Shown here: positions 6,001 to 9,000 of the stretch, in pieces
Layout of the letters: the number at the start of each line of letters is the position of its first letter
Numbering within the stretch: the first letter of the stretch is position 1
UHGV virus genome: UHGV-0269425
Direction: 5' to 3' (one strand)
DNA length: 10,715 nt
Origin: a virus
Made by a program: the position numbers

Positions 6001-9000
6001 AACCCTCTTAAAGATGGTTGCAAATTTTGTGAGTAGTTTAAAGCTACCCGCAAATTTTTCAGGGCATCGCCAGCCACTTTGAAAAAATGCTTTCCTTCAA
6101 TAAAGCGCTCAGCATTTCTGGCGTAGTTATTTTGAATGTTCTTAACTTCAGCACCGTACAACTGCGCCAAAAGTTCGGTGGTAATAACAGGAATCTGGTT
6201 ATGGGTGATCGGGGAGAGAGTTTCAACAGAGATTTGAGTTGTCATAATGACGCCCTCGAGTGGTTTCTTAATAACTCACCACCGACGACGCCAATCGTCT
6301 GGTGGTGAACTGTGCAGGGTTGGCGTAACCGGGAAACCGACCGGCGCGGATCTCTCCGCCCCCACACAGCCCACCATAATTCAGATGTGCGCGTGCATAC
6401 GACAATAAAAAACACGCTCGCGGCGTGTATCTGTCGCGGTCTCTATCCAGGACGCCAATCCCGACGCCAGATTTTGCTGGCGCGTGAGGAATATAGCCCC
6501 GAATAAATCATCACGTCAATCACCTTGTTTTCCTCGCACGATGTCTTAGCCACCGGATATCCCACAGGTGAGCCGTGTAATTGAAGGCTTTAACGTCAGA
6601 TTCTTTTGGGATTGGCCTGGGTTTATTTCTGGAACGTTTCGTTGGAAGGTAATTGCAGTTTTCACAGACTATATCGGTAATGCTTCGTCGCTGTCGTCTC
6701 ATTCATACCTCCTGTCGGTAAATCTGACACCCTGCTCCACAGCCCAGGAAGTTGTGTACTCAATCAGGCTTGCCATACGCTTCACGCTCATCTGCGCACT
6801 GCTTTCGCGGATATTGACGTATTCACCTTCAAGACCTGGCAAAACATCAGCTTCCTGTTTTGTAGCCACGGCATGACCGCTGATTAACAAAACTTTCCAC
6901 TGTTCTGGTTTTAGCCATCTGCCGCACCACTGAACCTGTCGGGAGATATCAGCGACCATCGCGTGAAATTTGGCATTTTGATCGAGATTCCGCTTGTAAT
7001 CGGTGATGCGGATCGTAACGGGTTTGTCTTTATCGAGAGTTGTTGCAAGGATGGCGTTAATGGCGAATTGTTGCTGCTGCTTACTTCGGAGGAAGATAGT
7101 CTGGTTCATTATTCCCTCTCACTGGATTTTCCCAACAAAAAAGGAGCCGAAGCTCCTTTAGTTTCAGAATTCAAATTGTCTTGCCCGCAGGCTTTTCAGC
7201 ATTGGCATGGCCCGCTGGATAACGGAACTTGACATGTCGAGACGTGTTACCTCCCTTAGTAGCGCGTCTCTGTTCTTCGTCACCATGTAGATGGTCTCAA
7301 ACGCAATGTCATACAGCTTGTTCGTGTATGAGGAGTTCAGCTCTTTCATAATGGGATACAGGTGTTTGCTGAGGTCCTGGGCTTTTTCCATCCAGAGCTG
7401 CATGTAGCAAAGGAGGATGATTTCTTCGGCTGTGAATTGTGGCTGAATCTGCGGCTGCTGTTCGGTTGGTGCTGTTTTTCCCTGGCTGAAATAGCAGTCT
7501 TCCAGTTTTTCGAATACCTCCCACGCCCGATCGGTTTCGAGCATTTTTGCGTGACGGGCTGCGCCGCGTTCTGTCCAGAGGATGAGGGAGCGAACGTTAC
7601 GGGCAATTTTCACAGAGTAGTTAAAAGCTACTCTGTGCTTGAACTCACGTAAAATTTCACCTTCAAGTTTGAAGAAGTGTTTTTCCTCAATGAAACGACC
7701 TTTGTTTTCGTGGTGATTCTGGCGAATACGAATAGCTTCTGTGCCGTAAAGGTGCGCCAAAAGTTCGGTAGTGATAACGGGGATCTGCTTGTAAGTAATC
7801 GTGGAGAGTGTTTCAACAGAAACTTGAGTTGTCATAATGACGCCCTCGAGTGGTTTCTAAACTATCACCACCGTCAGGTTCCTAATCATCGGGTGGCGAG
7901 ACGTACAGGGTTAGGAACTACCGGGAAACCAACCGGCGAGCTTTTCAGCTCCCCTATACGCCCCACCATAATTCAGATGTGCGTGTGCATACGACAATAA
8001 AAAACACGCTCGCGGCGTGTCTCTGTCGCGGTTTCTATCCGGGGTTCCTAATCCCGACGCCAGATTTTGCTGGCGTGCGAAGAATATAATCCCGGATATG
8101 TGTTGTCGTCAACATACCTTGAATGTATATAACAAATTTGTTATGTTTACTCTCATGAACTACATTATCGAATACTACAGTGACGAGGTTGAAGCTGAGA
8201 TCCTTTCTCTTCCTGAGACCTTACAAGCCCGGTACATTCGGTACACGGAGAAAATGCGTATTTACGGAGCTAATCTTGGTTCCCCGCATACAGAGGCATT
8301 TGGCGACGGTTTGTTTGAAATCCGCCTTAAGGGCTCGGAAGGCATAGGGCGTGTTTTTTACTGCACGCTAAAAGGAAAGCGAATCATTATGTTGCATAGC
8401 TTTGTAAAGAAAACGCAAAAAACTCCACCTGCCGAGCTTAGAAAAGCTGAAACCAGAATGAAGGAGGTTAAGCATGACTGGTAAACGTACCCCACCTACC
8501 ATGACACACGATGATATGGTAGAAAAAATGTTGTCTAACCCCGCAGTAAAAGCAGAATACGACGCCATCGCCGATGAATTCGCACTACTTGATGAAATGC
8601 TGGCAGCACGAAAAGAAGCTGGCTTAACCCAGGCTGAAGTTGCTGAACGTATGGGAACAAAAGCGACTGCGATAACCAGAATGGAAAGCAATCTTGCATC
8701 AGGTACAAGCGGCCCATCATTTGCCACACTGAAAAAATTCGCCCGTGCTACAGGGAAAAAACTCCAGATCCGCTTCGTTTAACTCTCCACTACCGCGCCG
8801 TCATTCTGGCGGCGCTTTACCCCAGAGAAATATCAATCACCGGATTACCACATCCCACTCCGGCTCCTGCCATCTCAAATCCGGTGAATCATTTCTCTCA
8901 GGAATAACCATTACGTCCTTTTCCCTTCGCTCCCTTTCTATCGCCATCACAGCCAATGCTGCAACCATGATGTATTTTTGTTCGTCGGTTCCTGTTTCAT

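Follow-up and report, generated by a model that had tools for sequence, protein, structure and literature searches.

The window analysed here is a 10,715-nucleotide (nt) stretch of the virus genome UHGV-0269425. It covers the early-right/nin region of an Escherichia coli lambdoid prophage, and nearly every gene in it lies on the minus strand. A two-gene toxin-antitoxin pair runs in the opposite direction. It is likely a self-contained, autoregulated type II operon composed of a Gp49 (HigB/Tad) toxin and an XRE (HigA/Ata) antitoxin, which is carried as exchangeable prophage cargo antisense to the early operon. The pair belongs to a known kind of prophage accessory module and has already been annotated by the Prokaryotic Genome Annotation Pipeline (PGAP). 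It stands out a little in one respect: the toxin mRNA probably lacks a leader, and translation of the antitoxin can rely on a strong ribosome-binding site (RBS). The present analysis adds a corrected toxin start, a predicted promoter and operator, a conserved leaderless layout, and a common knockout of the toxin start codon.

Toxin and antitoxin proteins

The toxin open reading frame (ORF) has two in-frame candidate start codons, ATG 8143 and ATG 8155, and ends with TAA at 8482-8484. It overlaps the downstream antitoxin ORF by exactly 11 nt (8474-8484). The toxin matches the Pfam family Gp49 (PF05973) with 94.2 bits against a cutoff of 23.9, and the match spans profile positions 2-90 of 90. 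Gp49 was the sole Pfam family reported, and the classical HigB family PF05015 gave no toxin match at E <= 0.01. The score against NCBIfam TIGR02683 (the RelE/ParE equivalog upstrm_HI1419) was 21.8 bits, below the cutoff of 62.85, which makes the toxin a non-member. The NCBIfam equivalog models gave sub-threshold matches only for the pair, and hence no specific name. The antitoxin is composed of an N-terminal extension of about 40 amino acids (aa) followed by a C-terminal XRE helix-turn-helix (residues 44-98), and matches Pfam HTH_3 with 43.3 bits (cutoff 23).

Both proteins find their closest solved relatives in one complex. Among solved structures, the toxin is matched best in sequence by Streptococcus pneumoniae HigB in 6AF3 and the antitoxin by S. 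pneumoniae HigA (6AF3_B); the pair thus matches the two partner chains of a single structure. With a profile of the toxin family, the match to S. pneumoniae HigB strengthens to E = 1e-6, and Mycobacterium tuberculosis HigB1 is also matched. The antitoxin profile reaches 6AF3_B at E = 1.6e-9, 7EWC (MtHigA2) at 2.6e-5, and 6LTY (MtHigA3) at 6.4e-5. An AlphaFold2 (AF2) model of the toxin was built with an alignment of 18 homologues and has a predicted local distance difference test score (pLDDT) of 79 and a predicted template modelling score (pTM) of 0.75. Its elements follow the order of a strand, three helices, three strands, and a long C-terminal helix (96-110). The modelled fold is of the RelE type, and its long C-terminal helix is a hallmark of Gp49-like HigB toxins. 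The top Foldseek matches are 6AF4 (S. pneumoniae HigB), 7NBU (M. tuberculosis HigB1), and 5JA8 (Vibrio cholerae HigB2), each with a probability of 1.0 and a TM-score of about 0.6.

These results agree with the initial annotation, which had described, from the sequence alone, a toxin-first pair of a Gp49/RelE-like toxin and an XRE antidote with an 11-nt overlap and a strong antitoxin RBS. It had named a failure to match RelE-fold and XRE families as the outcome that would speak against this description; matches to both families were found. The overlap lies at the coordinates it gave, and the RBS it had noted is the AAGGAGG located 6 nt upstream of ATG 8474. The placement of the pair antisense to the nin/early genes is likewise borne out by the strand of its neighbours (Ant, NinB, NinE, the DUF977/Ren-like gene, and the DUF1627 gene), and the distance of about 30 bp to a divergent small RNA (sRNA) promoter comes to 31 bp when measured from the edge of the isrK -35 element to ATG 8143.

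The catalytic pocket of M. tuberculosis HigB1 comprises K58, E66, R68, N73, R77, F93, K95, Q98, and K99; R68, R77, and K95 have been equated with R68, R73, and K92 of S. pneumoniae HigB, for which E66 and F90 are also named (PMC9098466). In HMMER alignments the toxin is identical at the catalytic positions E55, R57, R66, F83, K85, Q88, and K89 (numbering of the 109-aa protein that starts at 8155). In the numbering of the 113-aa protein that starts at 8143, E59, R61, R70, F87, and K89 align with S. pneumoniae E66, R68, R73, F90, and K92. The toxin keeps all five catalytic residues of S. pneumoniae HigB and seven of the nine of HigB1, with Q98 and K99 taken from the HigB1 alignment. Apart from Q88 (Q92 when counted from 8143), none of these columns varies among the 18 aligned sequences. 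F93 and K99 are lacking in the non-toxic M. tuberculosis proteins HigB2 and HigB3 (PMC9098466). As the toxin has equivalents of both residues, it is, judging by homology, probably an active ribosome-dependent mRNA endonuclease.

Control region and toxin start codon

Related loci were taken as the 80 best of at least 587 confirmed genome-scan matches; these 80 come from Gamma-, Beta-, and Deltaproteobacteria and from Nitrospirae. Counts of Shine-Dalgarno (SD) motifs and of gene pairing refer to 84 copies and homologous loci, and the start-anchored upstream profile refers to 77 loci.

The control region is marked by ATAACAAATTTGTTAT, the sole perfect 16-bp palindrome in the window, where 0.16 would be expected. 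Its core AAC-N6-GTT (within TAACA-N4-TGTTA) occurs at a fixed distance from the start codon in 72/77 related loci, and in these loci its right half runs into TG-n-TAnnnT, so that the conserved palindrome overlaps the predicted extended -10 element. In the family alignment the TG is invariant, and conservation reaches 99-100% at three hexamer positions, namely the T, the A, and the final T. This last T (99%) has no mirror in the palindrome, and its conservation is therefore not explained by the operator. The spacing between the hexamer and the start codon is 7 or 8 nt in 65 of the 72 palindrome-bearing loci, and this shared layout of the control region extends from E. coli to Nitrospirae. The elements of another candidate promoter, TTGTCG at 8103-8108 with TATATA/TATAAC at 8126-8133, are not the conserved ones; these are instead the TTG at 8119-8121 and the TG-n-TAnnnT at 8139-8147. 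The -35 element of the pair is 6 bp from that of isrK, and their closeness looks incidental.

The palindrome is likely the HigA operator, judging from its conserved position and from homologous systems. In M. tuberculosis higBA3, the palindrome ATAACC-TAGA-GGTTAT (DNA4) has been noted around the -10 box; MtHigA3 bound the overlapping -10-box fragment DNA2, not DNA4, as seen in a crystal structure and in an electrophoretic mobility shift assay in which only DNA2 was shifted (PMC7340258). The half-sites ATAAC/GTTAT and their spacing are the same in ATAACAAATTTGTTAT as in the higBA3 palindrome, and MtHigA3 is a detectable homologue of the antitoxin. The HigA2 antitoxins of Acinetobacter baumannii (PMC5906591) and V. 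cholerae each repress their own promoter. A search of the window for further operators gave one site with one mismatch (3171-3184), which is within chance, and a full-text literature search for four variants of the operator sequence found no paper.

The start-anchored profile has T, T, and G at -35, -34, and -33, T and G at -15 and -14, T and A at -12 and -11, and T at -7. A pyrimidine occupies -1 in 59/77 loci, and +1 is A or G in all. This is the arrangement of a textbook sigma-70 promoter whose +1 coincides with the start codon's first base. The predicted transcription start is hence at, or 1 nt before, A8155. No SD motif precedes either ATG in the window, nor the toxin start in any locus (0/84). 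Since the start codon lies at the predicted transcription start and none of the loci has an SD motif, the toxin mRNA is probably leaderless. The initial annotation had found no convincing SD motif at 8143 or 8155 and had suggested that the toxin might be leaderless or poorly translated; the geometry of the 77 loci supports this suggestion. Its use of ATG 8143 as the toxin start is very unlikely to hold, for ATG 8143 lies within the predicted -10 hexamer and the Met at 8155 is invariant.

On sequence grounds, the true start is ATG 8155, which gives a 109-aa toxin, and a start at 8143 is very unlikely. The Met at 8155 (M5 of the longer form) does not vary in the homologue alignment, and most homologues begin there, with lengths of 107-111 aa. 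It is also the RefSeq start in strain G6/7 (WP_016232083.1). An in-frame upstream ATG is found in only 6/77 related loci, and ATG 8143 constitutes positions 2-4 of the conserved hexamer. The longest ORF, from GTG at 8017 to 8484 (155 aa), was rejected, as its first 46 codons overlap isrK and the isrK promoter and are absent from homologues.

Several observations weigh against the predicted promoter and the leaderless mRNA. The transcription start at ATG 8155 is a prediction. The -10 hexamer TATGTT and the -35 hexamer TTGAAT each match the consensus at four of six positions, and for this reason the promoter was not reported by a consensus scan. ATG 8155 sits 8, not 7, nt past the hexamer. The start codon is GTG in 28/77 homologues, and GTG is poorly used by E. 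coli on leaderless mRNA. Furthermore, phage N15 gp49 has a normal SD motif, and in an Acinetobacter plasmid homologue the leader is about 25 nt long; the leaderless layout is therefore specific to a subfamily and not universal in PF05973.

The antitoxin gene is set up differently from the toxin gene. Its homologue lies directly 3' of the toxin in 83/84 loci, usually with an overlap of 4-17 nt, and an SD motif precedes it in 80/84 loci, inside the conserved toxin codons M-K-E-V-K. Positions 8461-8475 are dual-coding, in that the toxin codons AUG-AAG-GAG-GUU (M-K-E-V) form the antitoxin SD motif. This dual coding may be the cause of the strong conservation of RMKEVK at the C-terminal end of the toxin. 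A promoter scan gave no antitoxin promoter inside the toxin gene; its only plus-strand match (8501-8529, 9/12) falls within the antitoxin gene, and the overall number of matches is what shuffled sequence would give. Downstream of the antitoxin gene, a hairpin with a fold energy of -19.1 kcal/mol (z = -4.5 against shuffles) and the following UUUA may form the end of the operon. The hairpin was not called by a consensus terminator scan because its U tract is short. Just 3' of the antitoxin gene there is also a 22-nt inverted repeat (8825-8846/8878-8899) with 82% complementary arms separated by 31 nt, which overlaps the 3' end of a small minus-strand ORF.

Of 5426 complete E. coli genomes, 16 carry the full-length pair, each time on the chromosome; phage PhiR5_2 has it too, under the annotation HigB/HigA. 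RefSeq labels the pair as a RelE/ParE toxin and an HTH protein. Across the 80 best-matching loci, from several bacterial classes, the toxin is 60-75% identical over the tblastn-aligned stretch. In the Shiga toxin (Stx) phages POCJ13 and 75/02, tblastn finds the full 109-aa toxin as an allele with 71% identity, under the same promoter and operator. Their toxin is not 5'-truncated, as the RefSeq length of 87 aa would have it; RefSeq chose a late Met. Public annotations of the toxin locus give 76, 85, 109, 113, 128, 153, or 155 aa, and they are inconsistent because no RBS guides the gene callers. The analysis settles the gene model at 109 aa with a start at 8155.

The start codon itself is variable. 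In all nine other near-identical copies read (PhiR5_2 and eight E. coli chromosomes, the latter 99.6-99.7% identical to the window), the substitution G8157A changes ATG 8155 to ATA. Among the copies read, ATG 8155 is kept only in the window and in strain G6/7; G1/2 and G8 also keep it, as they matched the window at 100% in the search. In a larger protein collection, the listed forms with Met at the start position are found on 683, 113, and 33 contigs and those with Ile on 361, 13, and 2 contigs. If 8155 is the sole start, the ATA allele is probably a natural toxin-off variant that retains the antitoxin.

Proposed mechanism and alternative readings

By analogy with the homologues, free toxin would enter the ribosomal A site and cut mRNA, the N-terminal segment of the antitoxin would wrap around the toxin and block it, and a dimer of the antitoxin helix-turn-helix would bind ATAACAAATTTGTTAT over the -10 element and repress the operon. 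Transcription from A8155 or 1 nt before would yield a leaderless toxin mRNA that is weakly translated. Leaderless mRNA is inefficiently translated in E. coli. The antitoxin would be translated from the strong AAGGAGG inside the end of the toxin gene and would be in excess although it is encoded second. Once synthesis stops, for example through host shut-off by an infecting phage or through prophage loss, the antitoxin, presumably labile, would be lost, and the toxin would then halt translation by cutting mRNA on the ribosome.

Some of these steps can be read in other ways. The toxin could be translated from ATG 8143 as a 113-aa protein, from a transcript that starts at an upstream promoter such as TTGTCG with TATATA/TATAAC and has either a leader of 2-5 nt before 8143 or a longer leader without an SD motif; on this reading G8157A would exchange Met for Ile without harm. 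In its favour, ATG 8143 is in frame and serves as the RefSeq start in strain SCU-104, a few enterobacterial homologues have an in-frame ATG four codons upstream, and there is a TATA-rich stretch 5' of the palindrome. We nevertheless consider this start improbable, given the six loci of 77 that have an upstream ATG (the Photorhabdus and Sodalis relatives have none), the invariance of Met 8155 and the usual length of homologues, the membership of the 8143 bases in the conserved -10 hexamer, and the poor conservation of the alternative promoter hexamers in the family profile. ATG 8155 at a predicted transcription start thus stays our preferred reading of the toxin gene. As to the toxin itself, equivalents of HigB1 K58 and N73 are unmatched in it, at loop positions where the alignment is uncertain, and both residues are among those missing from HigB2 and HigB3 (PMC9098466), Gp49-family proteins that showed no toxicity. 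Moreover, its toxicity, its RNase activity, and the binding of antitoxin and operator rest on homologues with about 19-43% identity. The two unmatched residues and the lack of toxicity of HigB2 and HigB3, together with nine near-identical copies that have lost the start codon and kept the antitoxin intact, would suit a toxin that is attenuated or catalytically dead like HigB2 and HigB3, in a pair that serves mainly as an autoregulated DNA-binding regulator or as an anti-addiction antitoxin. Against such a reading stands the presence of the five S. pneumoniae HigB catalytic residues and of equivalents of HigB1 F93, K95, Q98, and K99; the two non-toxic proteins lack F93 and K99. The identity of the toxin across the 80 loci, with a co-conserved partner, indicates purifying selection on the protein, and widespread loss of the start codon is also expected if the toxin is costly. 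We therefore regard a dead toxin as quite unlikely and an active one as the better account.

The benefit that the pair confers is a separate matter. Its selected function may be abortive infection or superinfection exclusion, which the initial annotation had named as common for prophage modules in this position, rather than prophage stabilisation or purely selfish persistence. The pair lies in a variable slot beside a DUF4145 gene and a Ren-like exclusion gene, other prophages bear other toxin-antitoxin genes in the same slot, a defence role has been discussed for toxins of the RelE/ParE superfamily (PMC11980606), and PADLOC gives the toxin a partial match to the C-terminal domain of NsnC (E = 5e-8). 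However, the pair corresponds to no PADLOC system: PADLOC-DB 2.0 returned no defined system, and for the antitoxin only generic helix-turn-helix matches (capH, RmrA). Moreover, A. baumannii higBA2 (PMC5906591) and, as far as the cited accounts go, the N15 and tad-ata modules stabilise replicons, and the pair is rare among complete E. coli genomes, with a start codon that is often lost. A role in defence is hence doubtful.

The control-region layout may reach beyond the window. There is about an even chance that a large Gp49/XRE subfamily has its operator fused to an extended -10 element and its toxin start codon at the transcription start, such that from the same mRNA the toxin is made only by leaderless (70S-type) initiation and the antitoxin by a strong SD motif. 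If true, this layout would be a built-in way for toxin-first operons to keep an antitoxin excess, and conditions that favour leaderless translation would tip the balance towards the toxin. The common ATG-to-ATA allele would then be a natural toxin-off switch. The layout could also explain how the toxin:antitoxin ratio is set in this family; for modules of reverse order this has been called unknown (PMC5906591).

Genomic context and comparison with known systems

The features of the pair and of its surroundings are collected in Table 1. The pair is always found in the same slot, to the right of the ORF6N antirepressor region and to the left of the small minus-strand ORF and the plus-strand DUF4145 gene. 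What adjoins it on the left differs between prophages: here and in strain G6/7 this is isrK, whereas POCJ13 and JNEC-KY176 have other genes there and carry the pair without isrK alongside. The isrK promoter-like site diverges from the predicted promoter of the pair. In an E. coli O157:H7 Stx2a prophage, the slot (L094 1915-2893) contains a ParD-family antitoxin, a hypothetical gene, and an orphan HigA-family antitoxin, as well as a 71-bp remnant of the antitoxin 3' end (window 8714-8784). This remnant is found in many genomes of Shiga toxin-producing E. coli and in most of the 50 matching phage records, mainly Stx2a-converting phages. In JNEC-KY176, the slot (L091 3058-4009) holds the pair and an extra orphan HigA. 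This varied content makes the slot an exchange site for toxin-antitoxin cargo, and the pair, as far as the compared sequences tell, is such cargo between the replication genes and the isrK-C4-Ant/nin region of a lambdoid prophage. In lambdoid and Stx prophages, such an exchange slot bears on the stability of the prophage and on phage-phage competition in pathogenic E. coli.

Table 1. Positions of the toxin-antitoxin pair, its control elements, and surrounding features in the window
Feature	Position	Strand	Detail
Toxin gene (Gp49-family HigB/Tad-like, RelE-fold, 109 aa)	8155..8484	+	Pfam PF05973, E = 5e-27
Antitoxin gene (102 aa)	8474..8782	+	Pfam HTH_3, E = 3.7e-11
Antitoxin SD motif AAGGAGG	8461..8467	+	6 nt before ATG 8474
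Predicted -35 element TTGAAT	8119..8124	+	TTG conserved 17 nt upstream of -10 hexamer, 72 loci
Predicted extended -10 element TG-t-TATGTT	8139..8147	+	TG 8139-8140, hexamer 8142-8147; contains ATG 8143
Predicted HigA operator, perfect 16-bp palindrome ATAACAAATTTGTTAT	8129..8144		Overlaps -10 region
Terminator-like hairpin GCGCCGUCA-UUC-UGGCGGCGC, then UUUA	8795..8819	+	Hairpin 8795-8815
isrK sRNA (neighbour, outside the module)	7999-8076	-	Rfam RF01394, 69.2 bits
isrK promoter-like site	8112..8083	-	TTGACG (8112..8107), 18-nt spacer, TATATT ending 8083; 10/12 matches
Ant	7164-7835	-	Left of the pair
NinB, NinE		-	Left of the pair
DUF977/Ren-like gene, DUF1627 gene		-	Right of the pair
Small ORF, phrog_8371	8837-9082	-	Convergent with DUF4145 gene
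DUF4145 gene	9081-9755	+	N-terminal CxxC...CxxC
Rha-type antirepressor	4744-5472	-	
Q-like antiterminator	3474-4007	-	
STnc100 sRNA	2929-3135	-	Full-length match, 167.8 bits
SASA-family esterase	797-2707	-	
RusA, DUF1364 protein		-	

Other parts of the window deserve mention. Two tandem modules on the minus strand (5541-6496 and 7164-8076) resemble P1/P7 immI and Gifsy-1 isrK-anrP, and each is composed of an isrK sRNA, a C4 antisense RNA, and an ORF6N antirepressor. The C4 a1/b1 target match is found in the first copy only, and strain G6/7 has one isrK-C4-ORF6N module only. The Rha-type antirepressor is the third antirepressor in the window. The DUF4145 gene, whose start abuts the small convergent ORF, is also encoded against the early operon; its product has a weak PADLOC match to PD-T7-4 (E = 0.0026), and it is possible that this gene is a second accessory or defence gene of the variable region. 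The STnc100 sRNA lies between the Q-like antiterminator and esterase genes, a position that is occupied by tRNAs and stx in Stx phages.

The pair resembles several known systems to different extents. The N15 gp49/gp48 and tad-ata (Paracoccus plasmid pAMI2) modules are the founders of PF05973, and like the pair they are toxin-first, have an XRE antitoxin, and reside on a temperate phage or a plasmid. In Dziewit 2007, as that work is cited in PMC5906591, they are described as replicon-stabilising toxin-antitoxin modules. The toxin shares 43% identity with N15 gp49 over 83% of the toxin length. Unlike the toxin gene here, N15 gene 49 has a canonical AGGAGG RBS, and its start is not directly preceded by a TAACA-N4-TGTTA palindrome. 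Stabilisation is obviously useful for N15, whose prophage is a linear plasmid, whereas the prophage here is an integrated lambdoid one.

S. pneumoniae HigB-HigA (6AF3/6AF4) is the best match of both proteins in sequence and fold. HigB shares with the toxin the catalytic E, R, R, F, and K and the motif H-x-F-x-K-x-T-Q-K-T-P, and HigA shares with the antitoxin an N-terminal toxin-binding part and a C-terminal helix-turn-helix. The differences are the low identity of HigB (19% by Foldseek), its location on a Gram-positive chromosome, and its loop between strands 2 and 3 (a 4-residue gap). M. tuberculosis HigB1, a toxin of the toxin-antitoxin-chaperone (TAC) type, matches the toxin in fold (7NBU) and profile; this Gp49-like toxin combines a RelE fold with a long C-terminal helix and cuts mRNA on the ribosome (PMC9098466). 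HigB1 depends on a SecB-like chaperone, whereas the pair is not accompanied by a third gene of that kind. HigBA3 of the same species (HigA3-DNA complex, 6LTZ) provides the -10-box palindrome with the half-sites and spacing of ATAACAAATTTGTTAT, while HigB2 and HigB3 are non-toxic, unlike what is predicted for the toxin here.

V. cholerae HigB2-HigA2 matches the pair in fold (5JA8, 8A0X), with no sequence similarity detectable by phmmer. It has a single operator between the -35 and across the -10, and HigA2 combines a disordered N-terminal neutralising region with a C-terminal helix-turn-helix dimer; the operator sequence TGTACGC-N5-GCGTACA is unrelated to the palindrome here. A. baumannii HigBA2 (pAB120) is, like the pair, a toxin-first module with a Gp49-domain toxin. 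Its toxin is an RNase and also serves as co-repressor when the antitoxin represses the promoter; the study found no internal promoter for the antitoxin (PMC5906591). It belongs to another branch of the family, with a toxin of 118 aa and an antitoxin of 100 aa. The 66%-identical Acinetobacter plasmid homologue p3ABAYE (109 and 95 aa) was considered as A. baumannii HigBA and rejected on gene size (330/288 vs 357/303 bp). The classical HigB-HigA systems of Proteus vulgaris Rts1 and E. coli K-12 (PF05015) are also toxin-first, with a RelE-superfamily toxin and an XRE antitoxin, but differ in Pfam family and in antitoxin architecture. The label HigB for the toxin here, as in the PhiR5_2 record 'HigBA', is a generic one.

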